Positions 4,204-27,660 of a DNA stretch of 27,660 nt are shown one piece after another. Under the pieces are notes generated by a model. It had not been told where the DNA came from. It made no database searches and worked only from the letters and a program-made list of their open reading frames with translations. The DNA is from Candidatus Latescibacterota bacterium (GTDB lineage Bacteria > Latescibacterota > MVCY01). The stretch covers positions 1 through 27,660 of the forward strand of contig JAUWEO010000001.1 of NCBI GenBank assembly GCA_030608245.1, written 5' to 3'. The first letter of the stretch is position 1. Every line of letters begins with the position of its first letter. Position numbers and translations under genes: made by a program.

Positions 4204-4218
4204 AGGTGAAAATAGTGG

Positions 4219-4518
4219 TTACAGGCCCAGATAGATCAATCCTGACACACCGTTTCCGATGAGAACGGTCTCCGGATCAATCTGGTGGTGGGTTGAAAGC
4301 TTTTCCACCAGATCGGAGCATTGAGGGTCCGGATAATGAACGATAGACCGCAGATGCCTTTTTAATCCTTTCTCTACAGGGGATGGGGGCCCCAGCGGAT
4401 TGATGTTGGCACTAAAATCTAAGAACGTACTTTCAGGTAGTCCGAACTCCAGAGCCGCTACCCTGAGGCTTCCTCCGTGACTATTATTGTTCAATTCCCT
4501 CTCTGGCTCCGACTCCAT
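4219..4518 (-). pseudogene. cobD: Truncated threonine-phosphate decarboxylase (CobD); N-terminal ~90-99 aa only
   Basis: HGGSL...LDFSANINPLGPP...YPDP...VLIGNGVSGLIYL matches the CobD/HisC-like N-terminus. A TAA follows at 4219-4221 and the next gene starts 16 nt later, so the PLP-lysine region (~250 aa) is absent. Alternative TTG start at 4494. Confidence 0.8.
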
Positions 4519-4849
4519 TCTGGTAGTAATGCTTCACCTCCTGCATCTCTGTCACCAGATCTGCCCGCTCGACGATCTGCCTAGGAGCATACCGTCCAGT
4601 GATCACCAGCTCCACGGTCTCAGGTTTCAGGTTGATTAAGTCCACCAGCGCTTCAACCGTCAATAGTCCAAAGCGCAGGGCTACTGTGACTTCGTCCAGG
4701 ACAATGATATCGTATTGCCCTGAGCACATCGCCTCCAGGGTCTTTAGTTCCCCTGAGGGCTGTCCTTTCATGAACTGTCCGATATATGTCCTCAGGCCTC
4801 TGGGGAAACTGCAGCCTGTTGGCTTCCAGCTATAGATACGAAATCTCAT
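4484..4849 (-). pseudogene. cobO: Degenerate cob(I)alamin adenosyltransferase (CobO/BtuR family), lacking the P-loop and a central segment
   Basis: Retains GLRTYIGQFMKG, YDIIVLDE, ELVITGRYAP, ADLVTEMQEVKHYY and AREGIE. Only 121 aa (family about 170-200 aa). No GxGKGKT P-loop, and GQFMKGQPSGELKTL is joined directly to EAMCSGQYD. Confidence 0.75.
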
Positions 4850-6258: not shown

Positions 6259-6426
6259 AGTTTTCTCCTCCTTAATTGTAACCCTTTCATTTATAGCTGG
6301 AAACCGTCGGCGGCAGTTTTCCCCAGAGGCCCGGCCGGCCCAACCTGATTGGACTCCATGCTGTGTTCCCTCTCTTTTCACCTCCTTTCTCATTAAGTAG
6401 AAAGGTAATTCTGGGAAACCCTAGTC

Positions 6427-11042: not shown

Positions 11043-11211
11043 TTGAACACTGAAAAACACCGAAACAACTTTCAATCATGGATCGTAGAGTTGCTTTACG
11101 AAAACTTAATTGAGAATATGTCAAACGATATTTTGAAATTCACAGTTGTTTCGGAAAATAATCCGGTTGGGCTATTTCGTACTGTTCTTTGGTTGTTTCA
11201 GTGTGTTTTTC
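11043..11211. repeat. ~169-bp MITE/REP-like element, copy A
   Basis: Left end TTGAACACTGAAAAACACCGAAA matches the reverse complement of 16243-16265 at 22/23 nt. Right end GGTTGTTTCAGTGTGTTTTTC shares blocks with 16099-16128. Confidence 0.6.
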
Positions 11212-12356
11212 GAATCAGGGCTTATTTCAGCCTGAAATGCATAGAGATACCCATCATCGGAGCCAATATACACTCCCCTGGAAGTGATTGCGGGAGAGGA
11301 GTTAATGGCTCCATTAGTCTTATGTTTCCATCTTGATTTGCCCGTTTTGGCATCGACAGCATAGAAAAAACAGTCCTGAGATCCGAAATAGACAGTCGAT
11401 TGCGTCAACACTGGCGAGGACCGGATAACTCCCTTGGTTTGAAAGCTCCACAGCAGCTTCCCGTCCCGGCTGGCGAGGGCATAGAGAGACCGGTCAGTGG
11501 CGCCGAAGTAGACCTTTCCCTCACCCAGTGCCGGGGAGCAGTAGATACCTCCCTGAGCAGTGAAACTCCAACGAGGCTCACCAGAAAGGCGGTCAAGGCA
11601 GTAGAAACTTCCCCCCACAGTGCCTAAATAAACATAGTCCTGGCCTATTGCTGGGGCAGAATAAATGCTGGCATCCAGTTTCTGCTGCCATTTTAGTCTG
11701 CCATCAAAGATAGAGACGGCATACAGACAGTTGTCGTCAGAGCCGAAGTAAAGCAGGCTGTCGGAAACAGTAGGGGAGCAGTGGATTTGTCCCTCGGTGC
11801 CAAAAGACCAAAGTTCTCTGCCGGTGTCTGCGTTCAGAGCGACTATTTTACCCTGCTCTGTTCCCACAAAGACCCGGTTGCCAGCCACACAAGGAGAGGA
11901 TAGAAAGATCTCCCCCAGATTTTTCCTCCACCGAAGACTTCCCTTGGCCAAGTCAAGTGCCAGCAGAGAGTGCTTCCCGCCCAGAAGGGGAAGGAACAAG
12001 ATGCCATCTCCTACCGCCGGGGCAGAGCAGATCTTTCCCTCAAATTTATAGCTTCCTTCAGCTCGGCCTGTCTGTTCATCTATAGCATACAACTTTCCGT
12101 TGAGAGCTCCAATAACGATTTTTCCTCCCACTGCAAGAGGAGAGATCTCCACGGCTGTTACCGCCTTAAATCTCCATTTGAGTCCAAGTGGCGGCTCTAC
12201 TCCTTCAGGGGCGTATCCTGTTGCCCCAAGATCCCCACGAAAACAGGGCCAGTCGTTCTCTCTTATCCGAAGCCCTGGAAACATAAAGCGATGGGAACAG
12301 CAGGGCAGAACAACTGAGACCACAACTAACAGAATTTTGAGGACTTGCCTTTTCAT
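11172..12356 (-). CDS. PQQ-repeat beta-propeller lipoprotein (BamB-like family)
   Basis: Lipoprotein-like signal MKRQVLKILLVVVSVVLPCC. About 8 repeats of the type SSP-x5-VYFG-x-D-x2-LYA-x5-G-x3-W-x-F. Confidence 0.85.
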   Translation of the reverse strand: MKRQVLKILLVVVSVVLPCCSHRFMFPGLRIRENDWPCFRGDLGATGYAPEGVEPPLGLKWRFKAVTAVEISPLAVGGKIVIGALNGKLYAIDEQTGRAEGSYKFEGKICSAPAVGDGILFLPLLGGKHSLLALDLAKGSLRWRKNLGEIFLSSPCVAGNRVFVGTEQGKIVALNADTGRELWSFGTEGQIHCSPTVSDSLLYFGSDDNCLYAVSIFDGRLKWQQKLDASIYSAPAIGQDYVYLGTVGGSFYCLDRLSGEPRWSFTAQGGIYCSPALGEGKVYFGATDRSLYALASRDGKLLWSFQTKGVIRSSPVLTQSTVYFGSQDCFFYAVDAKTGKSRWKHKTNGAINSSPAITSRGVYIGSDDGYLYAFQAEISPDSKNTLKQPKNSTK

Positions 12357-12410: not shown

Positions 12411-15206
12411 CTAAAAATCCCACCCGAAGGAAAACTCTGAACGGGTGTTTTTGCTCAGAGAGCGGAAATCGGTCTGTCTGCTGAAGTCCAACCTGAGGAC
12501 CACGAAATGAGAGAGCCTCAAACGGGCCCCTATACCGAGACTTCCCAGCAGTCCTTGTTGGCGCATCTGGGCGGCATTGTCCCAACCGTTTCCGATGTCA
12601 ACAAAAAGTGTCCCTCGGATATCCCTCAGCCAAAGTCTAATCCAGGGGAATTTGATCAATAGCTGGTCAATCAGCGGATACCTCAACTCGCCGCTCAACA
12701 GCAACAGATGGTGTCCTCCGATGGAATTGAGCCGATAGCCACGGAAACTCCAGCTTCCCCCGCTGAAAAAGCGTTGTGGTCGTCTGCCGTGACTTGATCT
12801 GGCAAACAACTTTAAGGCCAGGGTATTTCTTCTGGAGAGTCTAAGATAACGGCGCCAATCTGCGAGGAGGCTGAAGTAGTGAATTCGGTGGTGTTCGATA
12901 TCAACAGTTTGTCCTAAGGTGAGGTTGTATCTTTCTCCGTCGATAGGGCCTACGGTGCCCCAAAGGCTGTTGTCTTTGGTGTAGCCGATGTAGGTGGAGA
13001 AAAGCAATCCCCCTTCCGGATCCAGCCCGCCGAAGAACTCTTCGCCCTCACAGTGGCGAAAGACAAGGTCTGTCTGCAGACGGGTGAATTTTGAAAAGGG
13101 GTAGCTGAGAGTGAAAAACCCGCCGTAGCGACGGTAGTGAATCCAGTTAGCCGAGGCGAGACTATATCCAGCCAAGTGAAAGACGCCCAAGGTTTTACTC
13201 CAGCGACGCGTAAGGTCTGCCTTGACTACGGCGATATTCATGTTTCTAAGCAGGTCTCTTCTTGTTCCCGCGGTATTGGACAAAAAGAAGTAGTAGTGGT
13301 GATCTCCCAGCATATCAGTTACTGCCACTCCCAGGCCGCCCACCGGTCCTAATTCTGGGTCGTAGGCGATTACACTCTGGGCCAAATCGAGGCTGAACTT
13401 GCGTTGGTATGGAACCACTCTTTGAACACAGTTTTCCCCTGTCCCGGAAAATGTCCAGTGTTCTCCTGTAGTTTCCGGCTCGGTGGGCTCTACCACTGTT
13501 AGCTGTTGGGGAAGAGAGAATCGGTAGATTTGAAAACTGCCTTTCTCAAAGGCGCAGAATAACAGTTGCTTGCCATCAGGAAACCAGCAGGGGGAGAAGG
13601 CCCCGGTTAAGATATTGGTAATCCTTTTGCACTCCAGGTTTTCGTCCAGGAGGTAGAGATTGAAGCCCCCATCGCGGTCGGAAGAGAAGGCCAATTCTAA
13701 ACCATCAGGAGACCAGGCAGGGGAGAGATCATTGTGTCTGCCCCAGGTCAGAGGTTTTATCTCTCCAGTGGAGAGCTGATAGATAAACAGGTTGTAATAT
13801 CCATGTTCCGGGGGCCTATTTCTGTCCGAGCTGAACACGACCTGCTGCCCGTCGGGGAACCAACTGGGTTCCCGCTCGCTGTAGAGGTCGTTGGTTAGTT
13901 TCTGGAGTCCACCGTCTTTCACCGAAAGGATGTAGAGATCACTTACGCCCTGAGTATCTTGTGCGCAAAAAGCCAGTTGTTCTCCGTCTGGTGACCAACT
14001 GGGAGAGAACAGGGATAACAAGGGCTCAAAGGCGAATTTTCTGATCAATCGGTGCCGGCTGATATCCCACAGATAGAGGGCATCTCGTTCTCCCCTTCTG
14101 GAGACAAAGGCCAATACCTGTTGGCGATTCACAGAGAGTCGGCTGTGTTGGGGGTGAAAGGACTCGAATTCTGCAGTGCGTTCCCCTTTGATGATTTTTT
14201 CCGCTCCGGGTTGGGAAAATCCCTGTCGACAGATGTTGAAATAACCCATCCGATTGGAAATAAACAAAAAACTTTCTGCAGTACTGTCGACAGGGGAGGT
14301 TACAATTACGGGTTGTAGATTCATCCCCGTGTGGGTGAGTTTGGTGGCGATTTCGCTTACCGCCTCGGCGGTGCCCATTCGGGGGAAATACTGCTTCTGG
14401 AGCCAATATCGCCACTCTTCGTTCAGCTTTTTCAGACTCACTCCGGTGGCCGAACGAAAGACAGACTCAAAATCCTCACTGCGCCACCAGTTCTCAAAAA
14501 TGAGGGATATTTTGTCTTCTCCGTATTTTTCAGCAATGTATTTGAGAATACTCTGCCCCTCTTTGTACATCTTGAACGAGCCCTCTATTAGGGCCATATC
14601 CTGGATAGAGACCAGAGTCCCGGAGTAGAGGGCATCTCTTATCACCATATCGGCAGTAGAATCCCACCCCTGGGACCAGTATTCGGCCAGCCCCTCGTTA
14701 AACCAGAGAGGTGGGAGGTAAAAATTATAAATGCGATGTTTCGCCGTTATTGTTTTTAACTTCTCGCAAGTGAAGACGTGGACTAATTCATGACGGATTA
14801 CATGCTTAAACTCTGCAACCGAGCCGGTGTAGGGGATGACCACGCGTCCTTTGGCAAACTCCATAAATCCGCCCACATCTTCGGGCAGGAGGGCAGGAAT
14901 GGTATTGGTCTGCTGGAAGTGAATAGATGAGCTGTAGAAGATGAGGGGAATCCGGCGGTGGAGGGTATAGGTAAGCTTTCGTTCTAAGAGAGTGTAGCTT
15001 TCCTCTGCCAATCTTGCTCCTATCTCCGCAATCCGTCTTTCCTCAGGATAGAAATAGATGTGAAAGTGAGGGGTGGTCATCCTCTGCCAGTCGAAATCTG
15101 TATAGCGGACTTTGTTTTTACCGAAATAGTATTGGGCATGAAGATCAGTTGAGGAGAGCACCAGGCAGAGGAGAACCAGCAGGGGTATTTGCAGGTGATG
15201 TTTCAT
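12411..15206 (-). CDS. Omp85/BamA-TamA family outer-membrane protein with N-terminal zinc-peptidase (HExxH) domain and PD40/TolB-like propeller
   Basis: Start re-called at 15206 (MKHHLQIPLLVLLCLVLSSTDLHA signal, then QYYFGKNKV). HELVH...PLWFNEGLAEY; several PSWSPDG/PAWSPDG repeats; C-terminal GSWSFRGY, SGELRYPL, FVDIG and terminal FSFGWDF barrel signature. Confidence 0.88.
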   Translation of the reverse strand: MKHHLQIPLLVLLCLVLSSTDLHAQYYFGKNKVRYTDFDWQRMTTPHFHIYFYPEERRIAEIGARLAEESYTLLERKLTYTLHRRIPLIFYSSSIHFQQTNTIPALLPEDVGGFMEFAKGRVVIPYTGSVAEFKHVIRHELVHVFTCEKLKTITAKHRIYNFYLPPLWFNEGLAEYWSQGWDSTADMVIRDALYSGTLVSIQDMALIEGSFKMYKEGQSILKYIAEKYGEDKISLIFENWWRSEDFESVFRSATGVSLKKLNEEWRYWLQKQYFPRMGTAEAVSEIATKLTHTGMNLQPVIVTSPVDSTAESFLFISNRMGYFNICRQGFSQPGAEKIIKGERTAEFESFHPQHSRLSVNRQQVLAFVSRRGERDALYLWDISRHRLIRKFAFEPLLSLFSPSWSPDGEQLAFCAQDTQGVSDLYILSVKDGGLQKLTNDLYSEREPSWFPDGQQVVFSSDRNRPPEHGYYNLFIYQLSTGEIKPLTWGRHNDLSPAWSPDGLELAFSSDRDGGFNLYLLDENLECKRITNILTGAFSPCWFPDGKQLLFCAFEKGSFQIYRFSLPQQLTVVEPTEPETTGEHWTFSGTGENCVQRVVPYQRKFSLDLAQSVIAYDPELGPVGGLGVAVTDMLGDHHYYFFLSNTAGTRRDLLRNMNIAVVKADLTRRWSKTLGVFHLAGYSLASANWIHYRRYGGFFTLSYPFSKFTRLQTDLVFRHCEGEEFFGGLDPEGGLLFSTYIGYTKDNSLWGTVGPIDGERYNLTLGQTVDIEHHRIHYFSLLADWRRYLRLSRRNTLALKLFARSSHGRRPQRFFSGGSWSFRGYRLNSIGGHHLLLLSGELRYPLIDQLLIKFPWIRLWLRDIRGTLFVDIGNGWDNAAQMRQQGLLGSLGIGARLRLSHFVVLRLDFSRQTDFRSLSKNTRSEFSFGWDF

Positions 15207-15255
15207 AGCAGATAAAGTCGGCCAACAGTTCTTGCCAGAGTCCCTGGGGGAGAAT

Positions 15256-16059
15256 TTACGAGTGAGTGAATCTTTTTGGCAGAACAAGAAGCATTGCCAC
15301 CGCCAACACAAACAGCAGCACGCACACACCCTGATTAAAGAGCACCGGGACTTTCCCGATCTTAAATAATATCATGCTATTTTCGTAATAGCGCGCAGAA
15401 TCAACTACAAAACGAGCTACTGCATAGGAGGCAAGCAGCAGCCAGAAGGTGAAGCCGTCGAACTTCTTAAACCTCTCTAAGAAGAGCAGAAGTCCAAAGA
15501 TTATCAGCCCATAGGCGGAGGAATAGAGCTGGGTGGGATGGATGGGGGTGTGGGGGAAGACAAAGCCAGCTGGACTGTCGGGGGGGAAACCCATCGCCCA
15601 AGGAAGCTGAGAGGGTTTTCCAAAACAGCAGCCGTTTAAAAAACAGCCCATCCGCACCAGAAATATCCCCGAGGCAATAGAGGGGGCGAAGGCGTCTGCC
15701 GTTCTCCAGAAAGGGAGTCTGTGTCGCCGGATATAGAGAAACCCCACTGCCAAAGCAGGGATCAATCCGCCGTAAAGTATCAGGCCGGATATGCCGAATC
15801 CCTCAGGGCCGAAGGGATTGATGATAGAGATCGGGTTATCCGAGTACTGGCCCCAGTGAAACGCCACATAGGTCAATCTTGCCCCGATGATGCCTGTAAC
15901 AATGCCCCATACTGACATATCCATCATTTGACTGGGTTCGACCCCCACCCTCTGGGCGCGCTTTACCGCCAGCCACAGCCCAAAGAAAAAGGCCAGGGCA
16001 AGCATCAATCCGTAAGAGCGAATGGCAAAGGGACCTACTCGGAACAAGAGAGAGTGCAT
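15256..16059 (-). CDS. lgt: Prolipoprotein diacylglyceryl transferase
   Basis: IRSYGLMLALAF, GARLTYV, LYGGL, RMGCFLNGCCFG, HPTQLY and RFVVD motifs. Confidence 0.93.
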   Translation of the reverse strand: MHSLLFRVGPFAIRSYGLMLALAFFFGLWLAVKRAQRVGVEPSQMMDMSVWGIVTGIIGARLTYVAFHWGQYSDNPISIINPFGPEGFGISGLILYGGLIPALAVGFLYIRRHRLPFWRTADAFAPSIASGIFLVRMGCFLNGCCFGKPSQLPWAMGFPPDSPAGFVFPHTPIHPTQLYSSAYGLIIFGLLLFLERFKKFDGFTFWLLLASYAVARFVVDSARYYENSMILFKIGKVPVLFNQGVCVLLFVLAVAMLLVLPKRFTHS

Positions 16060-18341: not shown

Positions 18342-18404
18342 ATCTCCTTAGAGGATTAAAATTTAAGCAATTAAGTTAGGAATTTCTTGTTCGAGAGTTT
18401 CAAT

Positions 18405-18434
18405 AATATAACCCACCCAGGGAGTTTTTGTCAA
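18405..18434 (-). promoter_or_regulatory. Sigma70-type promoter for the pfkB-rfaE1 cluster
   Basis: TTGACA (18434-18429), 18 nt, TATATT (18410-18405). Confidence 0.55.
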
Positions 18435-18533
18435 GCCTTATTTGTAACTTCAAGAAAATCCCAATAGTGGTAAACGCGACCAGGTAGATTCTCTCTTTTC
18501 CCAAAAAAAATTCATCAGAGAGCGATTTTTTTC

Positions 18534-18562
18534 TTGCGGAACAGAGAAAGGTGCATTATATT
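18534..18562 (+). promoter_or_regulatory. Putative sigma70-type promoter for rex
   Basis: TTGCGG (18534-18539), 17 nt, TATATT (18557-18562); same -10 hexamer as two other promoters in the window. Confidence 0.45.
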
Positions 18563-18623
18563 TGACGAAACGTTTTTCAGCAGCCGATTGGCACCCTTAT
18601 TAGTTGTTGATTTTACTGCATAA

Positions 18624-19259
18624 ATGGGGAGTTGGAGAGAAAAAGGTAGATTTCCGGATAGGGTAGTTAGTAGGTTTTCTCTCTATCTGCGATACCTCAA
18701 GCAAGTAGGACAAGAGGGTGTTTACTTAGTTACCTCCTCTCAAATAGCCCAGGCGTTGCATCTGACTGCTCCGCAGGTGCGTCGTGATCTTTCTTATTTA
18801 GGACAATTTGGGTTAGCCGGCGTAGGATATAATGTAAAGAAGCTCGCTTCCACTTTGGAGAAGGTTTTAGGGTTGAACAAAGAATGGCCGGTGGTTCTGG
18901 TGGGAGCAGGTAATCTGGGAGCGGCCCTGTTTTCGTACTCGGGATTTAGAAGACGAGGATTTAAGATCGTTGCCATCTTTGACAAAGATCCTAAAAAGGC
19001 CGGCACCAGATGGGCTAATGTGGCGATATTAGATATAGATCGTCTGCCCGAGACAATAAAGCAAAAAGATGTAAAGATAGGAGTTATTGCCGTGCCCCAG
19101 TATGCAGCGCAGGAGGTGGCAGATCGACTTGTTGGCTCGGGAGTCAAGGCTATTCTCAATTTCTCCCCCTGCAAAATAGAAGTTCCCGACGATGTGAAGC
19201 TGCAAGATGTGGATGTGACCACTGAGCTGGAAACCCTCAGTTGGTTTCTCAGCCAGTGA
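18624..19259 (+). CDS. rex: Redox-sensing transcriptional repressor Rex
   Basis: RFSLYLRYL, SSQIA, QVRRDLSYLGQFG..GVGYNV winged helix; Rossmann VLVGAGNLGAAL; AQEVAD, AILNFSP. Confidence 0.96.
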   Translation: MGSWREKGRFPDRVVSRFSLYLRYLKQVGQEGVYLVTSSQIAQALHLTAPQVRRDLSYLGQFGLAGVGYNVKKLASTLEKVLGLNKEWPVVLVGAGNLGAALFSYSGFRRRGFKIVAIFDKDPKKAGTRWANVAILDIDRLPETIKQKDVKIGVIAVPQYAAQEVADRLVGSGVKAILNFSPCKIEVPDDVKLQDVDVTTELETLSWFLSQ

Positions 19260-19275
19260 TAATTTTTGAGATATT

Positions 19276-19293
19276 TTGTGAAACTTTTCACGA
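19276..19293. promoter_or_regulatory. Rex operator
   Basis: TTGTGAA-ACTT-TTCACGA, one mismatch to the Rex consensus TTGTGAA-N4-TTCACAA; 17 nt after the rex stop and 80 nt before the next gene. Confidence 0.85.
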
Positions 19294-19373
19294 AATAGAG
19301 TATAAGTTGTTATCTTCGCTGTGTAAGGTTAAATACAAAAGACAGGTGGTTCCAAGTCACAAGTAGCGTTTAT

Positions 19374-20396
19374 ATGAATTATATCTCTAAAAACAATCTT
19401 GTCCAGCTACTGGAGATTCTCAAGAAAGATTACCAAGTCTATTTGCCCGTTAAGAAGGGCGAGCAGCGTTTTTATGACAGATATACCACATTCACAGATG
19501 ACATTGTCATTGGTGAGATAAGACCGTTTGAGCCTCTGAAGGCCTTTTTCACACCTGCAAGAGAGATAGTCGCCGAAGATTTCAAACCCGATATCCCTCA
19601 TTCTCATGATAAACCTTTTGCCATTGTGGGCGTAAAGGCCTGCGATTTAAAGGGGTTCAAAGTTCAGGATTATGTATTCAAAGATCACGATTACCAAGAC
19701 CCCTTCTATATGAAGCTACGCGAAGAAAACCTCATCATATCTGCAGACTGTACCTGCACCATAGATACATGCTTTTGTCTCTCCCTGGATGTTAAACCCT
19801 ACCCCCAAGAAAATTTCGATATTAATCTTTCTCAAGTAACAGAAGGCTATATTGTCGATGTCGGCTCTCCCAGAGGCCAGACGCTCGTTGAGAAGAATTC
19901 TTCCCTTTTTGAAGATGTCAAGGAGAAATTGATTTCTGAAAGAGAAGAGCAGAGAGCGAGGGTTGCCGGAGAGGTAGAAGAGAATATTGAAAAGAATGAT
20001 ATTCCCCATCAAGATGCGCTCAACGGTGCCATAGAAAAGAAATTTGAATCTGACATTTGGAAAAATGAGGCAGAAACTTGCGTCGAATGCGGGGCGTGTA
20101 ATGCTATCTGCCCCACCTGCCACTGTTTTCTGTTGTATGACCAGAAGGACGAAGAACACATGGCGCGGTTGCGTATCTGGGATTCATGTATGATAAAGGA
20201 CTTTGCCAGGGTTGCGGGAGGTGCCAACCCTCGTCCAGAATTGTGGATGAGATTGAGAAACAGGTTTGAGAAGAAATTTGATTTCTTTCCCAAGGTAGCT
20301 GACGTATATGCCTGCACTGGCTGTGGACGCTGCATCTTGGCCTGCCCAGCAAAGATTGATATAAGAGAAGTATTGAAGAAATTAACTGAGAGATAA
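19374..20396 (+). CDS. 4Fe-4S dicluster protein, sulfhydrogenase beta subunit / AsrA / FlxB-like
   Basis: GVKACDL, DCTCTIDTCFC, CVECGACNAICPTCHC, WDSC, RVAGGANPR, RLRNRFEKKF and CTGCGRCILACPAKIDI motifs. Confidence 0.88.
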   Translation: MNYISKNNLVQLLEILKKDYQVYLPVKKGEQRFYDRYTTFTDDIVIGEIRPFEPLKAFFTPAREIVAEDFKPDIPHSHDKPFAIVGVKACDLKGFKVQDYVFKDHDYQDPFYMKLREENLIISADCTCTIDTCFCLSLDVKPYPQENFDINLSQVTEGYIVDVGSPRGQTLVEKNSSLFEDVKEKLISEREEQRARVAGEVEENIEKNDIPHQDALNGAIEKKFESDIWKNEAETCVECGACNAICPTCHCFLLYDQKDEEHMARLRIWDSCMIKDFARVAGGANPRPELWMRLRNRFEKKFDFFPKVADVYACTGCGRCILACPAKIDIREVLKKLTER

Positions 20397-20425
20397 GTAA
20401 CAGAAAGTATGGAGATAACATAAAG

Positions 20426-20944
20426 ATGTCTATAAAAAATAGAGCTAAGAGTTTTCTTTATCTCTTTCTATTCCTGGTTTTAATATGGCTGTGCCTCACT
20501 TCGACTTTTAACAGGCAGGAGCTGTTTAGTGGTATTTTTATAAGTCTTGTTTTAGCCTTGTTTTTTAATGAATCCTATCTCAGATTAGGGCTTCCTCCTT
20601 TGACCTTGAAAAGGTTTGCCTTTTTCATTGTCTATGTGATTGTCCTTTTAAAGGAAATAATAAAAGCCAACTTTGATGTCGCCTACCGGATTATTCATCC
20701 CAAGATGCCCATAAAACCTGGGATTGTGCTCATCAAAACTGAACTTAAGTCTGACATCGCGAAAATGATTCTGGCCAATTCTATTACTTTGACGCCGGGA
20801 ACATTTACTCTGGATATTCTGAGGGATAAGATTCTTGTGCATTGGATAAATGTGAAGACAGAAGATATAGATGAGGCCACAAAAATCATAGGGGAAAGGT
20901 TCGAGAGATATCTGAGGGTGATATTCGCCCGAAATCTACATTAG
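20426..20944 (+). CDS. mnhE: Mrp/Mnh subunit E (MbxA/MbsA-like)
   Basis: EIIKANFDVA...PGIV...LANSITLTPGT...VHW motifs. Confidence 0.92.
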   Translation: MSIKNRAKSFLYLFLFLVLIWLCLTSTFNRQELFSGIFISLVLALFFNESYLRLGLPPLTLKRFAFFIVYVIVLLKEIIKANFDVAYRIIHPKMPIKPGIVLIKTELKSDIAKMILANSITLTPGTFTLDILRDKILVHWINVKTEDIDEATKIIGERFERYLRVIFARNLH

Positions 20945-20978
20945 CCAAATGAAAATAAGATTACTGGAGGTGTGAGTC

Positions 20979-22325
20979 ATGCAGAGGAGAATCGTTGTGG
21001 TAGGTGGAGGGCCTGGTGGTATCACTGCAGGCATCACGGCAAGAAGGTACCATCCGGAGGCCGAGATTACCCTTATTCGTCGAGAGGAAAAGGTTTTAGT
21101 CCCATGCGGTATACCCTATATCTTCGGCACGCTTGGTTCCCCGGAGAAGAATCTGATTCCTGATACCGCGCTTTCGAACAACGACATTGATCTGATTGTG
21201 GATGAGGTCACTTCTATAAACAAGGCTGCCAAGACCCTCACCACAATTAATCATGAGACCCTCAGTTACGACAGGATGGTCATGGCGACGGGTTCCTTGC
21301 CTTTAGTTCCCCCATTGCCCGGTGTTGATCTGGGTAACGTCTTTACCGCAAAGAAGGATATGGAATACCTGCAGAAATTGTCACAGGCCTTGGATAAAGC
21401 CGAGGATGTCGCTGTCATCGGTGGAGGTTTCATCGGATTAGAATTTGCCGATGAGTTTAATAAAAGGGGTAACTTAAATGTAACAGTGGTGGAACTTCTC
21501 CCTCGCTGTTTACTTCTGGCCTGCGACGAAGAGATATGTACCCGTGTGGAGAAAAAGCTGTCTGAGAGAGGCATAAAGATTCTGTCTGGCAGAAAAGCGA
21601 AAGCCCTGCTGGGTGAGGAAAGTGTTCAATACGTGGAACTGGAGAATGGTCAAAAACTTAAAGCAGATCTGGTGATTTTGGGGATAGGGGTAAGACCCAA
21701 TGTTGAGCTTGCCTTAAATAGCGGGTTAGAGGTTGACGAAAAAGATGGTATACAGGTTGACGGTTTTATGAGGACGAGTGATGAGAACATCTTTGCAGCC
21801 GGTGATTGTACAGCAAAGAGATGTTATCTCAGTGGTTCACCCATAGCTGTTAGATTAGCCTCAATGGGCACTACTGAAGCCAGGATAGCTGGAGCAAACC
21901 TGTTTGGGATTCGGCGGAGGGTTGAGTGTGCTATAGGTATATTTTCCACCTGTTTCGGTGACCTTGCTGTGGGGTCTGCGGGGCTGACCGAAAGAGCGGC
22001 AAAGGAGATGGGCATAGATGTTGTAGTGGGCGAAGCCGCCGCTCCGGATAAACATCCTGGTGGTATACCTGGCGCCAAGGAGTTAGGCATAAAGCTGATA
22101 TTTGAGAGGGATACCGGCTTACTTATAGGTGGACAGGTCTACGGTGGAGCGACAGTCGGTGAGAAAATAAATTTCATTGGTGCTCTTATCCAGCATAAGA
22201 TGAGAGCAGATGAGGTGTGTACTTTTCAGATGGGAACGCACCCTATGCTCACTGCCTCACCAATGGCTTATCAGCTTGTAAATGCCGCTCAATTTGCCGT
22301 AGCGAAACTGAGGAAAGCGAAATAA
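20979..22325 (+). CDS. FAD-dependent pyridine nucleotide-disulfide oxidoreductase (CoA-disulfide reductase / NADH oxidase / NSR family)
   Basis: VVVGGGPGG FAD-binding motif; single redox-Cys motif PCGIPY (C43); ATGS; VIGGGFIGLE NAD(P)H-binding motif; IFAAGDC; C-terminal dimerisation domain; GGAGGTG SD. Confidence 0.9.
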   Translation: MQRRIVVVGGGPGGITAGITARRYHPEAEITLIRREEKVLVPCGIPYIFGTLGSPEKNLIPDTALSNNDIDLIVDEVTSINKAAKTLTTINHETLSYDRMVMATGSLPLVPPLPGVDLGNVFTAKKDMEYLQKLSQALDKAEDVAVIGGGFIGLEFADEFNKRGNLNVTVVELLPRCLLLACDEEICTRVEKKLSERGIKILSGRKAKALLGEESVQYVELENGQKLKADLVILGIGVRPNVELALNSGLEVDEKDGIQVDGFMRTSDENIFAAGDCTAKRCYLSGSPIAVRLASMGTTEARIAGANLFGIRRRVECAIGIFSTCFGDLAVGSAGLTERAAKEMGIDVVVGEAAAPDKHPGGIPGAKELGIKLIFERDTGLLIGGQVYGGATVGEKINFIGALIQHKMRADEVCTFQMGTHPMLTASPMAYQLVNAAQFAVAKLRKAK

Positions 22326-22326
22326 G

Positions 22327-22584
22327 ATGAATGGAACGCTGATCATTTTTCTTGCCATCATAGGGGCAGGTCTCATCCTGTGTTTTTTGCGTATGTTGAA
22401 AGGTCCTACTGCTTCGGATAGAGCGGTGGCGGTGGATACGGTTACCACAACTATCGTCGCTTTACTCGTTCTGTTAGGCTTTATCTTCGAGAGATATGTT
22501 TACTTGGATGTTTCTTTGGTTTATTCCATGATATCTTTTGTCGGATTAGTCGCTCTGGCCAGATTTCTGGAAAGGGGAATTTAA
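22327..22584 (+). CDS. mnhF: Mrp/Mnh subunit F (MbxB-like)
   Basis: RMLKGPTASDRAVAVD, YLDVSLVY, SFVG..ALARFL motifs. Confidence 0.92.
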   Translation: MNGTLIIFLAIIGAGLILCFLRMLKGPTASDRAVAVDTVTTTIVALLVLLGFIFERYVYLDVSLVYSMISFVGLVALARFLERGI

Positions 22585-22917
22585 ATGCATTTATTTGGGG
22601 TAATTATTACCGGAATTGGAACTATATTTCTCTTTTTAGGAAATCTTGGAATACTTAGATTGCCTGATGTATATAACCGGGTTCAGGCAGGAACAAAATG
22701 CACTACCCTGGGAGCTTTTCTCACCATTATCGGAGTGGGGATAATGCAGCCAGCTTGGTTCTGGAAAGCTTTACTTATTGCTGTATTTATTCTTGTAACC
22801 AATCCCATCCCGAGCCACGCCATAGCCAGAGCTTCTCGTAAGAGTGGAGTCCCCTTGTGTGATAGAAGTGTGGTGGATAAGACCAGAGAATTTGAGGAAT
22901 ATGAGGAGAAAGGATGA
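22585..22917 (+). CDS. mnhG: Mrp/Mnh subunit G (MbxC-like)
   Basis: GILRLPDVYNRVQAGTKCTTLG and TNPIPSHAIARA motifs. Confidence 0.92.
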   Translation: MHLFGVIITGIGTIFLFLGNLGILRLPDVYNRVQAGTKCTTLGAFLTIIGVGIMQPAWFWKALLIAVFILVTNPIPSHAIARASRKSGVPLCDRSVVDKTREFEEYEEKG

Positions 22918-23150
22918 TTTTTGTTTTCCTTTTGGTGCTTTTGATGCTTATAGCAGCAATTGCCGCCTCTATTTTTAAGGATCTGATAAGCGCTGTCATT
23001 GCTGCGGCTTTGGTTAGTCTGATAGCAGCTATCCTTTTTTATCTCCTTCAAGCACCGGATGTAGCCATGGCGGAAGCAGCTATCGGGGCAGCACTGGTTA
23101 CCGTTGTGTTTATTATCGCCATAAGAAGAACAAAGAGGTTCGAGGAATGA
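22914..23150 (+). CDS. DUF4040 / MbxD-like small membrane subunit
   Basis: KDLISAVI, LQAPDVAMAEAAIGAAL motif; ATGA overlap with mnhG. Confidence 0.88.
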   Translation: MIFVFLLVLLMLIAAIAASIFKDLISAVIAAALVSLIAAILFYLLQAPDVAMAEAAIGAALVTVVFIIAIRRTKRFEE

Positions 23151-23833
23151 GAAGGATAATTAGTATCCTCTTATTAGGGATAATAGCCTTAGGCATCACC
23201 CTATCCCTGGCGAAGATTCCTTTTGGCACGCCTAAGACAAAAGTAGGCAGATACTATATTGATAAAGGGGTCGAAGAAACTGGGGCTACCAATATTGTCA
23301 CTTCCGTGGTGGTGAATTATCGTGCTTTTGATACCTTAGGTGAGGTTACGGTCTTATTTATCGCGGCTATTGGTTTGGGTGCAGTGCTGACGACTGGCAG
23401 AAGAAAAAAACCTGAGAGAAAAATAGAGCCAGCCAGTTTAGTTCTCTATACCGGCTGCAGATTTCTGTTTCCGCTTATTCTTCTTTTTGGTGCTTATATC
23501 TTTGTCCATGGTCATCTTACCCCTGGGGGAGGATTTCAAGGGGGGGCAATCGTCGCCTCTGCCTTTGTTTTGACTTATTTGGGTTGCCGGGAAAGAAGGA
23601 TAAGTGAGAGAGGGAGTAAACTTGCAGAATCTTTGGGGGGATTGATCTTTGTAATAGTGGGACTGGTTGGTTTAGCCGTGGGCGGCTATTTTTTGATGAA
23701 TTTTCTCCCTAAGGGGATCCCCAATTTTCTTTTTAGTGCGGGCATTATCCCTATTCTCTATATTGTTATTGGAGTTAAGGTGGGTTCAGAGTTGGCCGGT
23801 ATTATTGATAACCTGATAGAGGAAAGCGAATGA
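23147..23833 (+). CDS. mnhB: MnhB-domain subunit (fused MbxE+MbxF-like)
   Basis: GATNIVTSVVVNYRAFDTLGEVTVLF in the N-half and HGHLTPGGGFQGG in the C-half. Confidence 0.9.
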   Translation: MRRIISILLLGIIALGITLSLAKIPFGTPKTKVGRYYIDKGVEETGATNIVTSVVVNYRAFDTLGEVTVLFIAAIGLGAVLTTGRRKKPERKIEPASLVLYTGCRFLFPLILLFGAYIFVHGHLTPGGGFQGGAIVASAFVLTYLGCRERRISERGSKLAESLGGLIFVIVGLVGLAVGGYFLMNFLPKGIPNFLFSAGIIPILYIVIGVKVGSELAGIIDNLIEESE

Positions 23834-24189
23834 GTTTTCTGAATCACTACATTTATTATATCGGTGCCTTTGGACTCATATTCATCGGGCTTTATATCGT
23901 CCTGGTTAAGCATAACCTTATCAAGGTTATTATCGGCCTTAGCATTATGGAGACCGGGGTAAATTTATTTCTTATCTCCATTGGGTATATTAAGGGGGGA
24001 ACGGCTCCCATCTTCTCAACACCTGAAATAGAGGCCGCCCGTATGGTCGACCCCGTACCCCAGGCGCTGGTACTGACGGCTATTGTTATCGGAGTGGCAG
24101 TCTTAGCGTTGGCCCTTTCCTTGGCTATTAGGTTATATCAGCATTATGGCACACTTAATCTTCGTAAGATAAAGGAACAAAGATGGTAA
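23830..24189 (+). CDS. mnhC: Mrp/Mnh subunit C (MbxG-like)
   Basis: NLIKVIIGLSIMETGVNL and DPVPQALVLTAIVIG motifs. Confidence 0.93.
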   Translation: MSFLNHYIYYIGAFGLIFIGLYIVLVKHNLIKVIIGLSIMETGVNLFLISIGYIKGGTAPIFSTPEIEAARMVDPVPQALVLTAIVIGVAVLALALSLAIRLYQHYGTLNLRKIKEQRW

Positions 24190-25655
24190 ACCCCGTACTT
24201 CTGATTGCTGTGCCTTTAGGTTTGGCTTTTGCGATCCCTCTATTTGGGTTTATTTCGCAAAAGTTAGAGAAATACATCCCACCGGTGGCGATGTTATTTA
24301 ACCTCATTGTTTCCTTATCACTCATCCCTAAGGTATTAGAACAACCGATTGTTGTCTCCATAGGCGGTTTTCCACCTCCTTTCTGTATTAATCTGGTAGC
24401 CGGGCCAGTGGGCGTTCTGTTTTCCGCTATCATTGCTTTAGTAGGTTTTTTAGTTTCCATCTATGCCTTGGATTATATAAAAGAGGGGGCTACCGAGAAG
24501 TACCATATGCTTTATCTCTTACTTCTTACCGGAGCCACAGGTGTTGTCCTCACTGGAGATATATTTAACCTGTTTGTCTTCTTTGAGATTCTTTGCATCT
24601 CCTCCTATGCTCTGGTAGCTTACTTAGGGAATAGGGCTGGGATTGAATCGGCGGTAAAATATCTCATTCAAGGGGCTATTGGCTCAAGTCTTGTGCTTAT
24701 AGGGGTGGCCCTGCTTTACGGTCTTTTCGGGACCCTGAATATGGCCGATATTGCCAGAAATATAGATTCGGTTAGCCCGATATCGGTGTTTGTCCCGTTG
24801 GTTTTATTGATTACCGGATTGGGAATAGAGGGAGCTATATTCCCATTAAACGCCTGGTTGCCCGATGCTCATTCATCTGCACCATCCTCTATTAGCGCCA
24901 TTTTGTCCGGTATAGCCATAGAAGTAGGTATCTATGCGGTGGCCCGGGTTATTTTCACCGTATTTGGCGCCTCAAGCATTTTCCTATTTCTGGTGCTCTT
25001 AGGACTTTTAACCCTTCTTGTGGGGGAGATGTCCGCTTTTAGCCAAAAAAATATCAAAAGGCTTCTGGCTTACTCCAGTATAGGGCAGATAGGATTGATC
25101 GTCTTTGCGCTGGGAATCGCCACCTCGTACGGAGTGGTTGGCGGTCTATTCCAAATCATCTCTCATTCTTTGAGCAAGGCATTACTTTTCTTAGCGGTAG
25201 GCTATATGATCTACCGCACCGGCTCTATGGATATTTCTACTTTGGATGGAATGGGTAAGAGGATGCCCTTTACTTCCTTGGCCTTTACCATCGGAGCGTT
25301 CTCCCTCGTGGGGCTGCCCCCTTTCGTAGGATTTCCCAGTAAATTTCTGATCGTTCGGGCTGCCTTAGCTAAAGAAGAGGTCTTGTTCACCGTGCTTATT
25401 GCGCTTGTCCTCTTAGGCACAGTCATTGAAGGGGCTTATTTCTTCCGAGTGATACAGACTCTGTATTTTAAGGGGAAAAGGGTTAGTCCTAATAAGAGAG
25501 AGGAAGCGCCTATCGCTGCTTTAATCCCTATAGGTATCCTGATGATACTGATCATCGTTATAGGGGTATATCCCAGGCTCGTAACCGATATCTTAAACTC
25601 GGCGGCTTCAGAACTCCTGAATAGAATCGGGTATATCAAAGGGGTGTTAGGATGA
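24183..25655 (+). CDS. mnhD: Proton-conducting membrane subunit, MnhD/NuoN-like (MbxH-like)
   Basis: TGDIFNLFVFFEI, AVKYL, WLPDAHSSAPSSISAILSG, KRLLAYSSIGQIG, HSLSKALLF and GLPPFVGFPSKF motifs. Confidence 0.92.
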   Translation: MVNPVLLIAVPLGLAFAIPLFGFISQKLEKYIPPVAMLFNLIVSLSLIPKVLEQPIVVSIGGFPPPFCINLVAGPVGVLFSAIIALVGFLVSIYALDYIKEGATEKYHMLYLLLLTGATGVVLTGDIFNLFVFFEILCISSYALVAYLGNRAGIESAVKYLIQGAIGSSLVLIGVALLYGLFGTLNMADIARNIDSVSPISVFVPLVLLITGLGIEGAIFPLNAWLPDAHSSAPSSISAILSGIAIEVGIYAVARVIFTVFGASSIFLFLVLLGLLTLLVGEMSAFSQKNIKRLLAYSSIGQIGLIVFALGIATSYGVVGGLFQIISHSLSKALLFLAVGYMIYRTGSMDISTLDGMGKRMPFTSLAFTIGAFSLVGLPPFVGFPSKFLIVRAALAKEEVLFTVLIALVLLGTVIEGAYFFRVIQTLYFKGKRVSPNKREEAPIAALIPIGILMILIIVIGVYPRLVTDILNSAASELLNRIGYIKGVLG

Positions 25656-27502
25656 GTTTAGAGCTTTTACTTATCATTGCCTTTGGCGGCGCATTTCTCA
25701 CGTATCTTTTAGGGAAGCTCTCTTCCGGGGTGCGCAATTTCTTTGCTGTCTTTATTTCCTGTGCTCTGGCAGCCATTGTAGCTTACCTTTATGGGAAGCC
25801 CTCGGAGGAGACTTTTTATCTAGGATTTTTGGGCTTGCCCCTTCTTTTAAGATTGAATATGCTTTCGTGGTTTTTTGCTATTGCCATAGCCGTTGTGGGA
25901 GCCCTTTCTATCATTTTCTCTTTAAGCTATATGAAAGGAAGAGAAAAAACCGACTTTTATTATTTGATGATGCTTCTGGTAAATGCGGGCATGTTGGGGA
26001 TTGTGCTATCGGGTGATTTGGTTTCCTTCTACATCTTCTGGGAGATCATGTCGTGGAGCGCATTTCTGCTCATAAGTTACAACCGAGGACCTGCTTTGGC
26101 TGCAGGGATGAAATACATCATTATGTCCATTGTCGGTTCTGTAGCTATGCTCATCGGAATGTTATCACTCTACGCCAATTATGGAACTTTGAGTATTTCA
26201 GAGGTTGCTCCCTTCGTAGCCTCTGCCTCTTCTGGCTACATTTTATTCATTTTGATCGTTTTCTCTATTGCTTTCGGAATCAAAAACGCAGTGCTTCCAT
26301 TTCATACCTGGCTTCCCGATGCTCATTCAGAAGCGCCATCTCCATTTTCTGCTGTGCTTTCCGGGATATTGGTCAGGATGGGAATGTACGGCTTTCTTCT
26401 CTTTTTCTTTGTGATAGTAGGATCGAAACTTTTTCTTGGTTTAGGACGGGATAATTTCCATTACATTCTTGCCTGGATAGGGGCTATCAATATAGTAATC
26501 CCCACATTTATTGCTATGCTTCAAAATGATTCCAAAAGATTGTTGGCCTGGCATGGAGTTGGACAAGGAGGATATATGGTTCTGGGGGTTGCCTTAGGGA
26601 CCAGTTTGGGAGTAACTGGGGGTACATTTCACATTGTTAACCATCCTTCATATATAGCGCTTCTGTTTTTAGTAGTGGGAGCAGTCGAATACCGAACTAA
26701 GGGAATCCGAGATTTGAATTCTCTGGGTGGACTTATCAAGAGGATGCCCATCACTTTTATCGGGGCTTTGGTAGGTGCTTGTGGATTAATCGGGCTTCCC
26801 TTGACCAATGGGTTTGTCTCCAAGTGGCTAATCTATAAGAGCTTAATTCTTCAAGGGCATCCTTTCTTGGCCTTTGCTGCCTTGATAGGAACTTGGGGAA
26901 CTATTCTTTCCCTTTATAAATTTCTGCACAACATGTTCTTGGGACAGCTTCCTGAAAAATATAGGAACGTGGAAAAGGCTCCTTTCAACATGCAATTTCC
27001 AATAATTATATTGAGCCTGATTATTATTCTCTTCGGCATTCTTCCCGGCATTCCCCTCAAGGTCATAAATTCTATTACGACTTCCTTTGGCCTTGAGTCC
27101 TTAAATATAAACATCTGGGGAATTGCCTCAGAGACCGGGGCATTGAACACCATAAACATCTTTGCCGCCATTCTGGCGGTTGGTCTTATTGTCTGGCTGA
27201 TTTTTAGGGCGGGACCGAAAGCGGCACCCATTGCTCAAGATGACAACTACGCTGCCGGAGCATATGTCCCCAAGGAGAAATACCATTATACGGTTGATTT
27301 CTACAATCCTCTATATCGAATGATCTCGCCTTATCTAAGAGATTTCATAGATGAGTTTTACATGAAGCTTGCAAGAGGCACCCAGAAACTGTGTGGTGGA
27401 ATACGACACGTTTATACCGGAGACGTAGGTCATTATGTAATGTATATAGTGCTGTTCCTGGCATCGCTGATTTTCGTTCAAATCAAATGGGGTATATGGT
27501 GA
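25652..27502 (+). CDS. Second, longer proton-conducting membrane subunit (MbxH'/NuoM-L-like)
   Basis: 616 aa; GDLVSFYIFWEIM, WLPDAHSEAPSPFSAVLSG, KRLLAW and GLPLTNGFVSKW motifs, plus a C-terminal extension (YAAG...FY...YTGD) typical of lateral-helix-bearing subunits. Confidence 0.9.
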   Translation: MSLELLLIIAFGGAFLTYLLGKLSSGVRNFFAVFISCALAAIVAYLYGKPSEETFYLGFLGLPLLLRLNMLSWFFAIAIAVVGALSIIFSLSYMKGREKTDFYYLMMLLVNAGMLGIVLSGDLVSFYIFWEIMSWSAFLLISYNRGPALAAGMKYIIMSIVGSVAMLIGMLSLYANYGTLSISEVAPFVASASSGYILFILIVFSIAFGIKNAVLPFHTWLPDAHSEAPSPFSAVLSGILVRMGMYGFLLFFFVIVGSKLFLGLGRDNFHYILAWIGAINIVIPTFIAMLQNDSKRLLAWHGVGQGGYMVLGVALGTSLGVTGGTFHIVNHPSYIALLFLVVGAVEYRTKGIRDLNSLGGLIKRMPITFIGALVGACGLIGLPLTNGFVSKWLIYKSLILQGHPFLAFAALIGTWGTILSLYKFLHNMFLGQLPEKYRNVEKAPFNMQFPIIILSLIIILFGILPGIPLKVINSITTSFGLESLNINIWGIASETGALNTINIFAAILAVGLIVWLIFRAGPKAAPIAQDDNYAAGAYVPKEKYHYTVDFYNPLYRMISPYLRDFIDEFYMKLARGTQKLCGGIRHVYTGDVGHYVMYIVLFLASLIFVQIKWGIW

Positions 27503-27660
27503 TGAATGTTGTAGAGATAATTTTCTCCCCACTTCTGGCACTTATCGTCGGAATATTCTTTCTGGGTTTATCCAGAAAAATAATGGCTAGAATTCACTGG
27601 CGGTGTGGTCCTCCTCTCATACAGCCGGTTATTGATATCATTAAGTTATTCAGTCAAAAG
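27502..27660 (+). CDS. NuoH/HyfC-family membrane anchor subunit (MbxM-like), partial, runs off the window
   Basis: Not in the ORF track; ATG overlaps the upstream TGA. Hand translation MNVVEIIFSPLLALIVGIFFLGLSRKIMARIHWRCGPPLIQPVIDIIKLFSQK matches the RK..AR...R.GPP..QP..D..KL signature. Confidence 0.88.
   Translation, partial: MNVVEIIFSPLLALIVGIFFLGLSRKIMARIHWRCGPPLIQPVIDIIKLFSQK

Follow-up and report, generated by a model that had tools for sequence, protein, structure and literature searches.

A Rex-preceded MBX/MBS-type operon with a CoADR-like flavoprotein gene in a Candidatus Latescibacterota bacterium and its relatives

The MBS complex of Pyrococcus furiosus (formerly MBX; 6U8Y; PMC7684303) is known from biochemistry, and a short motif in its J subunit leaves the proximal iron-sulfur cluster with three cysteine ligands as the catalytic site. 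Related mbx-like operons occur in bacteria (Thermotogota and others; PMC4758237; PMC9431562; 10.1101/322537; NF010590). In those of Thermotoga and of proteobacteria, NuoI is replaced by a gltD-related flavoprotein (Degli Esposti, PMC4758237). The MBX of Thermotoga maritima is a 13-subunit homologue of MBS, and elemental sulfur (S0) induces nsr and mbxA together in this organism (PMC9431562); the Mbx of Mesotoga has been treated as a ferredoxin:NADP oxidoreductase (preprint 10.1101/322537). Here we describe an operon of this type in a 27,660-nucleotide (nt) stretch of DNA from a Candidatus Latescibacterota bacterium (GCA_030608245.1, JAUWEO010000001.1; hereafter the window). It follows a rex gene and a predicted Rex operator, and the gene for a single-cysteine flavoprotein resembling CoADR lies between mbxA and mbxB.

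The window corresponds to one complete contig, C256, of a metagenome-assembled genome (MAG) that comprises 276 contigs and is 90% complete. Assignment of its open reading frames (ORFs) with Pfam and NCBIfam profiles identifies rex, the operator and then the first eleven genes, about the front two-thirds, of one MBX/MBS-type operon (Table 1). These eleven ORFs are co-oriented on the + strand from position 19374 to the contig end, and their spacing ranges from a 7-nt overlap to a 34-nt gap. The flavoprotein gene ends 1 nt before mbxB, inside the operon, and the in-frame ATG of mbxM at 27496 overlaps the stop codon of mbxH'. Promoter-like and terminator-like sites in the operon block are no more numerous than shuffled sequences would lead one to expect. 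The gene order, families and tight packing proposed in a first-pass annotation of this DNA match the ORF, Pfam and NCBIfam calls, and the MBX/MBS-type membrane arm that it recognized is supported by the two antiporter-like subunits and the NuoH-like M. A stand-alone Mrp antiporter, by comparison, has no NuoH/B/C/D-like genes, whereas a NuoH-like gene begins here at 27496 and J-K-L-N follow in relatives. Chance does not account for the gene order, which is found again in at least ten loci from other phyla.

As in P. furiosus, the genes run A-B-C-D-E-G-H-H'-M(-J-K-L-N) and encode two antiporter-like subunits. The locus differs from the archaeal one in its control (SurR in P. furiosus, Rex here), in the additional flavoprotein and HydB-like genes, and in its mesophilic sediment bacterial hosts. 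The described bacterial mbx-like operons share the same 13 core genes and the N fusion discussed below. In contrast, mbxA is directly followed by mbxB in those operons, whereas a 1.35-kb flavoprotein gene separates the two here and the first gene of the operon is HydB-like. The NSR gene of T. maritima (TM0379), moreover, is located at a separate locus and not inside the operon. Our literature search, whose coverage left out most subscription papers, turned up no mbx operon described as containing a flavoprotein gene. The first-pass annotation had regarded the whole module as undescribed, and this view has to be given up, as bacterial mbx-like operons with a GltD-related N are already in print (PMC4758237; PMC9431562; 10.1101/322537). 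What is new here is not the type of complex but the cassette for a CoADR-like accessory flavoprotein, plus the extra HydB-like gene in this lineage.

The leading gene encodes a HydB/AsrA-like protein whose best solved relative is the beta subunit of P. furiosus sulfhydrogenase I (9nez_B; 168 bits over the full length, Cys motifs conserved). This gene is found only in the window and in genome G001. The operon of the same-genus genome G003 does without it, and no HydB-like gene stands beside mbxA among the operons of either locus survey that we carried out, one based on the flavoprotein and the other on MbxL. The proposal that this protein is an iron-sulfur relay belonging to the module is therefore not upheld, and the HydB-like gene is a lineage-specific leader gene.

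No NuoD-like gene (PF00346) was found anywhere in the 90%-complete MAG to which the window belongs. For this reason, and because the window is a whole contig, J-K-L-N can be read only in G003. Contig C62 of G003 has rex-mbxA-flavoprotein-mbxB...mbxH in common with the window, with proteins 84-95% identical, and contig C12 begins within mbxH and continues with an H' that is 87% identical to that of the window. Next on C12 come genes for NuoH-like, NuoB-like (186 amino acids (aa)), NuoC-like (172 aa) and NuoD-like (365 aa) proteins, then a 623-aa N protein composed of a NuoI/MbsN-like part with two [4Fe-4S] clusters and a Fer4_20 plus Pyr_redox_2 part, and then an ArsR-type regulator. By synteny, the operon of the window's organism would continue likewise with J, K, L and N::NfnB/GltD-like.

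The L and J subunits of G003 score best against MbsL and MbsJ. Specifically, L matches MbsL (6u8y_L) over its full length with 347 bits, compared with 258 bits for Nqo4 of Thermus thermophilus and 156 bits for MbhL. The large subunit of group 4 [NiFe]-hydrogenases (MBH/Ech) carries two CxxC motifs, both of which MbxL lacks: no CxxC motif was found in the MbxL of four operons (G003, L034, L035, L036), all four ligand positions are occupied by residues other than Cys, and RINVIEP and YVVAPE stand where hydrogenases have RVCGICS and DPCYSC. Both motifs (CGIC, CYSC/CYCC) are present in the NiFe hydrogenases that G003 and L035 encode in separate clusters. The complex I (NDH-1) quinone ligands His38 and Tyr87 (Nqo4, T. 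thermophilus numbering) are both Val in the L of G003. The absence of a NiFe site and of quinone ligands is shared with MBS. MbsL retains two of the four NiFe-site cysteines, whereas the bacterial L keeps neither (C85 is Asn and C385 is Val in G003). The first-pass annotation had singled out the large subunit as the gene by which to tell MBS from a hydrogenase or a quinone reductase. Read in G003, this subunit has no NiFe CxxC motif and no quinone-type residues and scores best against MbsL, so that a NiFe hydrogenase or a quinone-reducing NuoD is contradicted in the closest genome available for this comparison. The quinone synthesis genes MenA and MqnA/D were not found in the 90%-complete genome, which is a weak negative.

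The J subunit of G003 aligns with MbsJ without gaps over MbsJ residues 14-169 (228 bits), with a CTGC motif of the same length (FCTGCG) and with the equivalents of C93 and C123 kept. In other bacterial MBX clades, the first Cys of this motif is Gly (YGTGCG). The N fusion occurs in G003 and in all complete operons of the clade. Its MbsN-like part scores 108 bits and its NfnB-like part 257 bits, and the whole protein matches NF010590 over its full length with 726 bits (cut-off 946). The N subunit of P. furiosus MBS is, in contrast, free-standing and docks ferredoxin. The fusion of N to an NfnB/GltD-like flavoprotein therefore suggests that the donor is probably NADH rather than ferredoxin. In the NfnB-like domain of the window's clade, SLEDWD replaces the YRR(R) found in NfnB and in other bacterial MBX clades. 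Because YRR(R) is the stretch that contacts the 2'-phosphate of NADPH, NADH is the probable substrate in this clade. The NAD(P)H linkage of the first-pass annotation thus survives in its NADH half, given SLEDWD in N and Glu172 in the flavoprotein (see below), and its NADPH half should probably be dropped.

More broadly, bacterial MBX operons fall into two classes, one with SLEDWD and a short insertion in N and with FCTGCG in J, the other with YRRR in N and YGTGCG in J (L027, L117-L119, L123-L186). To judge from these motifs, the classes may correspond to NADH-type and NADPH-type complexes.

Only one Rex operator-type site occurs in the window (chance expectation 0.01). Rex boxes with zero to two mismatches also lie 130-270 nt upstream of mbxA in G003, L126, L143, L034 and L035, and in total seven operons of the clade have a Rex box before mbxA. 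The Aerophobetes locus L036 has two Rex boxes, one before its flavoprotein gene and the other before mbxA, within the same range of distances, and a Thermotogae MAG locus (L119) also has rex upstream of its MBX operon. Rex binds DNA in its NAD+-bound form and is released by NADH (PMC8836258). The predicted Rex control of the operon, put forward on first inspection, is supported by the single operator match ahead of the operon and its recurrence before related mbx operons.

These features bear on an older model of Mbx, in which the complex would be an Rnf-like ferredoxin:NAD(P)+ oxidoreductase that reduces NAD+ at the NfnB-like domain and pumps ions, with no sulfur chemistry at J/L. Bacterial Mbx has been described in this way (PMC4758237; 10.1101/322537), but experiments on the archaeal prototype identified it as a sulfane reductase and not a ferredoxin:NADP+ oxidoreductase (PMC7684303), and the family appears to couple at the J/L/M pocket, which a path from ferredoxin through N to FAD would bypass (as judged from PMC7684303). 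NfnB-type modules are reversible; the fused domain, however, probably fills the ferredoxin docking side of N. The transfer of electrons from ferredoxin to NAD+ would yield more energy than that from NADH to polysulfide, and yet derepression by Rex at high NADH suits an NADH consumer rather than a producer (PMC8836258). Furthermore, RnfD is encoded elsewhere in the genome, so that the ferredoxin:NAD+ job is already covered. We consider the Rnf-like model unlikely.

The flavoprotein encoded between mbxA and mbxB is related to the NSR/CoADR/CoAPR group (4FX9, 8A56, 6PFZ) by its fold, its domain order and a single redox Cys in an N-terminal motif. Its best solved relatives are Archaeoglobus fulgidus NoxA-3 (6pfz, 211 bits), the CoA-persulfide reductase of Enterococcus faecalis (8a56, 200 bits) and Pyrococcus horikoshii CoADR (4fx9, 197 bits). 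Cys43, in the motif PCGIPY, is invariant in 84 family sequences and aligns with the cysteine of CoADR and CoAPR. Glu172 closes the NAD-binding beta-strand, which indicates that the flavoprotein is probably of the NADH type. The protein differs from the group in its level of identity (about 30%), in having no rhodanese domain, in six extra conserved cysteines and in its C-terminal THPMLTASP. It also falls short of the cut-offs of four curated models: TIGR03385 (255 bits, cut-off 579), NF007123 (236, cut-off 458), NF010037 (117, cut-off 394) and NF046103 (157, cut-off 600). The first-pass annotation had taken it for an NSR/CoADR-family orthologue, which is not sustained by the TIGR03385 score or by the wider family, whose members lie in ORP-like iron-sulfur gene clusters. 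The pairing with an MBS-type complex nonetheless echoes the co-induction of NSR and MBS.

The flavoprotein might instead serve only to remove O2 or peroxide as an NADH oxidase, shielding an O2-sensitive iron-sulfur complex and having no role in an energy pathway. Its homologues are annotated 'NADH oxidase (H2O2-forming)' at source and its best solved match bears the name NoxA-3, but true NADH oxidases and peroxidases score lower against it (130-175 bits, Npx being lowest at 130) than the 197-211 bits of NoxA-3, CoAPR and CoADR, and the protein misses the score of the H2O-forming NADH oxidase/NADH peroxidase family by a wide distance (NF046103). The position that we take to be His10 of Npx/Nox reads Pro in the GGGPGG of the flavoprotein. 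Rubrerythrin often ends mbx-like operons (PMC4758237) and the flavoprotein gene is dispensable in close operons, both of which would suit a protective enzyme. However, the habitat is anoxic seep sediment, and the flavoprotein gene of L036 appears to be co-regulated with mbxA through its own Rex box. A purely detoxifying function is distinctly unlikely.

The flavoprotein family as a whole is large. More than 120 clusters at 64% identity or more were found in a large protein collection, and the family with C43, C177, C187 and C277 spans many bacterial and archaeal phyla; C177, C187 and C277, like Cys43, are invariant in the 84 members. Homologues of 48-63% identity in 71 loci (L046-L116) lie beside genes for NifX-like proteins (18), MinD/Mrp-type ATPases with Fer4 (17), radical SAM proteins (8), NifU (6) and DUF134 (6), and those in three loci lie beside HydB/HydG-like genes (Chloroflexota, Planctomycetota). 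The neighbours of the nearest unlinked homologues (L046, L047, L050, L051) were uninformative.

This setting matches the iron-sulfur gene-cluster context described for ORP/MrpORP (PMC6345978), and together with the family-wide cysteines C177, C187 and C277 it would fit a flavoprotein that supplies or repairs iron-sulfur clusters for the complex, for example by releasing sulfide from persulfides. Against such a role, the MBX-linked members form a distinct subclade with three cysteines of its own and conserved gene neighbours of another kind, control by Rex suggests a place in redox-balance metabolism, and MBX operons rich in iron-sulfur proteins look intact where the flavoprotein gene is missing. 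A function in cluster supply is thus quite improbable.

The first survey comprised 12 loci with flavoprotein homologues of at least 65% identity, from about six phyla, labelled at source as Latescibacterota, Bacteroidales, Prolixibacteraceae, Pirellulales, Atribacteria, Aerophobetes and unclassified MAGs. The flavoprotein gene adjoins mbxA in 11 of the 12 loci, and the contig of the twelfth is too short to tell. The order is A-flavoprotein-(ArsR)-B in ten loci and flavoprotein-CsoR-like-A in one (L036). The insertion is therefore not unique to one genome, which supports the proposal of the first-pass annotation in this respect. The second survey sampled 80 metagenome loci by means of MbxL, and five of its operons, whose L proteins are 78-87% identical, show the junction between mbxA and mbxB. 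None of these five close operons has the flavoprotein there; the junctions read A-B (two), A-ArsR-B (two) and A-DUF3034-ArsR-B (one). The canonical MBX operons of other Bacteroidota and of the Thermotogae MAG also do without the flavoprotein, with A-B gaps of 57-153 nt and no gene between in L117, L118 and L119. MBX-type L itself was found in 3 genomes, the centre genome G041 included, of 300 randomly sampled Bacteroidota species.

In an MbxH tree, every operon with the flavoprotein gene belongs to a single 15-row clade (support 100/97), in which these operons are interleaved with others that do not carry the gene; the Thermotogae MAG falls in this clade, which is that of the window. This interleaving requires at least two gains or losses of the flavoprotein. 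The term 'built-in', used on first inspection, therefore does not hold. The gene is absent from close operons and scattered on the tree, and the flavoprotein is thus better described as a specialized accessory, encoded at a variable junction, that the complex can do without than as a subunit. The candidate role of a fixed subunit was rejected on the MbxL-based sample and the MbxH tree.

A related proposal is that the flavoprotein, alone or with the HydB-like protein, is a true extra subunit providing a second entry or exit for electrons, with its six extra cysteines holding a metal or iron-sulfur centre. Three of these cysteines (C182, C282, C317) never vary among the 13 MBX-linked sequences and are seldom present in the remaining 71, and the placement of the gene 1 nt before mbxB and the recurrence of the family beside HydB/HydG-like genes would fit a structural part. 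Yet otherwise intact close operons have lost or lack the gene, and in L036 it stands outside the operon order. The same seven-Cys pattern also appears in L050 and L051, whose two MAGs yielded no MbxL; on these grounds the pattern was also rejected as a marker of MBX-bearing genomes. A structure model of the flavoprotein (mean predicted local distance difference test score, pLDDT, of 70) falls below 50 in the Cys loops 43-50, 174-180 and 276-319 and is too weak to show a Cys site, and a lookup in the ESM Atlas gave generic names alone. That the flavoprotein forms part of the complex is highly improbable.

The junction between mbxA and mbxB is a variable slot, occupied by an ArsR-type gene alone, by DUF3034 plus ArsR or by the flavoprotein plus ArsR (L143 232-2911, L126, L138, L034, L035, L041, L045). 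The ArsR proteins of the junction have two invariant cysteines, in NEC and CY motifs, which are not at the BigR/SqrR positions. As regards the idea of a persulfide sensor, the ArsR-type protein is nearest to BigR and does not keep the BigR/SqrR cysteine positions, and the CsoR-like protein of the Aerophobetes locus lacks the Cu-binding His and is not clearly CstR. In L143, a gene for a membrane-anchored thioredoxin lies just upstream of mbxA.

Taken together, we favour, at a little better than even confidence, a Rex-derepressed, NADH-oxidizing, MBS-like pump that probably reduces sulfane sulfur and has a soluble thiol or persulfide reductase as partner. Gene content, families, conservation, the operator and motif states are read directly, and from them we infer which compound donates electrons and which accepts them, which way the reaction runs and what the flavoprotein does. 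In the favoured mechanism, a rise in the NADH/NAD+ ratio would cause Rex to leave its operator. NADH would then be oxidized at the flavin of the N fusion, and electrons would travel by way of the clusters of N to J and its proximal [4Fe-4S] cluster. This cluster would reduce a sulfane-sulfur substrate (polysulfide or an organic per- or polysulfide) in the J/L/M pocket, as in P. furiosus MBS, and the reduction would drive H+ or Na+ movement through M, H', H and the Mrp module. The flavoprotein would be a soluble, NADH-preferring partner acting on the same cytoplasmic pool of sulfur and thiols, as NSR is thought to do beside MBS. For example, it might convert persulfides or disulfides of CoA or of other low-molecular-weight thiols to the thiol and H2S.

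Several observations weigh against this mechanism. We know of no biochemistry for any bacterial MBX. The reduction of polysulfide (about -260 mV) by NADH (-320 mV) provides only about 10-12 kJ per electron pair, a small yield when two antiporter modules have to be driven, the more so in sulfidic sediment. Because these energetics are tight, the true acceptor may be a more positive disulfide or another compound. The J, K, L and N subunits are known from G003 and not from the window's own genome, and the bacterial L has lost both residual cysteines of MbsL, though these are dispensable in MBS. With respect to the flavoprotein, its CoADR score lies far under the curated cut-off, its relatives below about 63% identity stand in an ORP-like iron-sulfur context and not among sulfur genes, and the five close operons sampled through MbxL have no such gene at the junction.

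The nearest public genome is Candidatus Latescibacterota bacterium CSMAG_1060, whose flavoprotein is 98% identical to that of the window. Nearly all sequencing runs with the locus are cold-seep or marine-sediment metagenomes. DNA runs of several seep studies carry the locus with few differences, and a Logan contig of run X2 reaches about 1.8 kb past the window end. In a cold-seep metatranscriptome (run X20), contigs of at least 99% identity fall on the HydB-like gene, the flavoprotein gene, the flavoprotein/mrpF junction, mrpG and H', and no contigs of this run fall on rex (window 18400-27660 compared). These contigs suggest expression of the operon in situ; contigs of an RNA library are no proof of transcription, which also counts against the mechanism set out above.

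Table 1. Positions of rex, its operator and the MBX/MBS-type operon genes in the window, with the matches on which each assignment rests
Feature	Position	Strand	Basis
rex, redox-sensing repressor, 211 aa	18624..19259	+	NF003995 257 bits, NF003993 256 bits, both above cut-off
Rex domains: Put_DNA-bind_N and CoA_binding	18624..19259	+	Pfam
Predicted Rex operator TTGTGAAACTTTTCACGA, between rex and operon	19276..19293	+	One mismatch to consensus TTGTGAANNNNTTCACAA
HydB/AsrA-like multi-cluster Fe-S protein, 340 aa	19374..20396	+	Pfam Fer4_22; NF040829 ShyB 192 bits, below cut-off
mbxA (MnhE/MrpE-like)	20426..20944	+	PF01899, 140 bits
CoADR-like single-Cys FAD/NADH flavoprotein, 448 aa, at the mbxA-mbxB junction	20979..22325	+	Pfam Pyr_redox_2, Pyr_redox, Pyr_redox_dim
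mbxB (MrpF-like)	22327..22584	+	PF04066, 69 bits
mbxC (MrpG-like)	22585..22917	+	PF03334 89 bits; NF009314 124 bits, above cut-off
mbxD (MbhD/DUF4040)	22914..23150	+	PF13244, 69 bits
mbxE (MbhE and MnhB fusion)	23147..23833	+	PF20501 and PF04039; NF009217 252 bits
mbxG (NuoK/MnhC-like)	23830..24189	+	PF00420 94 bits; NF006250 109 bits
mbxH, first antiporter-like subunit, 490 aa	24183..25655	+	PF00361; NF006241 (PRK08377) 476 bits, full length
mbxH', second antiporter-like subunit with C-terminal extension, 616 aa	25652..27502	+	NF006419 (PRK08668) 504 bits, 1-608 of 613 profile positions
mbxM (NuoH-like), 5' end, 55 codons, cut at contig end	27496..27660	+	PF00146 match 27532-27657, E 4.7e-8

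Elsewhere in the window, genes on the opposite (-) strand encode a 972-aa protein in which a Peptidase_MA-like domain and PD40 repeats are joined to an Omp85 barrel (12411-15329), followed by a BamB/PQQ-propeller protein (11172-12356); lgt (15256-16059) lies upstream of the Omp85 gene. A further co-oriented group on this strand (3223-8712) consists of genes for a TonB-dependent receptor (6427-8712), a protein with an FlgD_ig-type C-terminal domain (4849-6393) and an Asn-synthase-like protein (3223-4203); the first-pass annotation took this stretch for a candidate corrinoid salvage operon.

Two related loci have hydrogenase genes beside the MBX operon. In L027 (G003, contig C12, 7495-19000), the MBX operon with its ArsR gene is immediately followed by genes for HydB-like and HydG/AsrB-like proteins, a ferredoxin, NuoH/B/C-like proteins, a NuoD-like large subunit with the NiFe motifs CGIC and CYSC, and antiporter-like subunits. 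To go by its genes, this second cluster appears to encode a group 4 hydrogenase that is membrane-bound and connected to an NAD(P)H module of the sulfhydrogenase type. In L035 (1-9100), an MBH-type hydrogenase operon with a fused NuoC-NuoD bearing NiFe motifs, Mrp-like subunits and an HycI protease lies immediately upstream of the flavoprotein-bearing MBX operon, an arrangement that echoes the MBH/MBS pair of Thermococcales.

A bolder proposal, which we regard as speculative and probably not correct in full, is that the MBX-linked flavoprotein clade closes a carrier cycle of thiol (CoA or other) per- or polysulfides with the membrane complex. NADH-driven, Rex-controlled, ion-pumping sulfane respiration would then have spread by gene transfer across at least six phyla of mesophilic seep and sediment bacteria, and the mbxA-mbxB junction would be a cassette site at which partner enzymes are swapped together with an ArsR-type sensor.

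If the favoured mechanism fails, the locus is an ordinary member of a known operon type. Bacterial MBX is widespread in anaerobes, and in the clade described here three features converge on NADH as the donor, namely the Rex operator, the acidic motif of N and the NADH-type accessory flavoprotein. A soluble, easily expressed partner enzyme could furthermore reveal the sulfur or thiol substrate of the system. If the mechanism is correct, bacteria from many phyla in cold seeps and sediments would use NADH for energy-conserving sulfur reduction of the Thermococcales type, which would have a bearing on sedimentary sulfur cycling and on the evolution of complex I.

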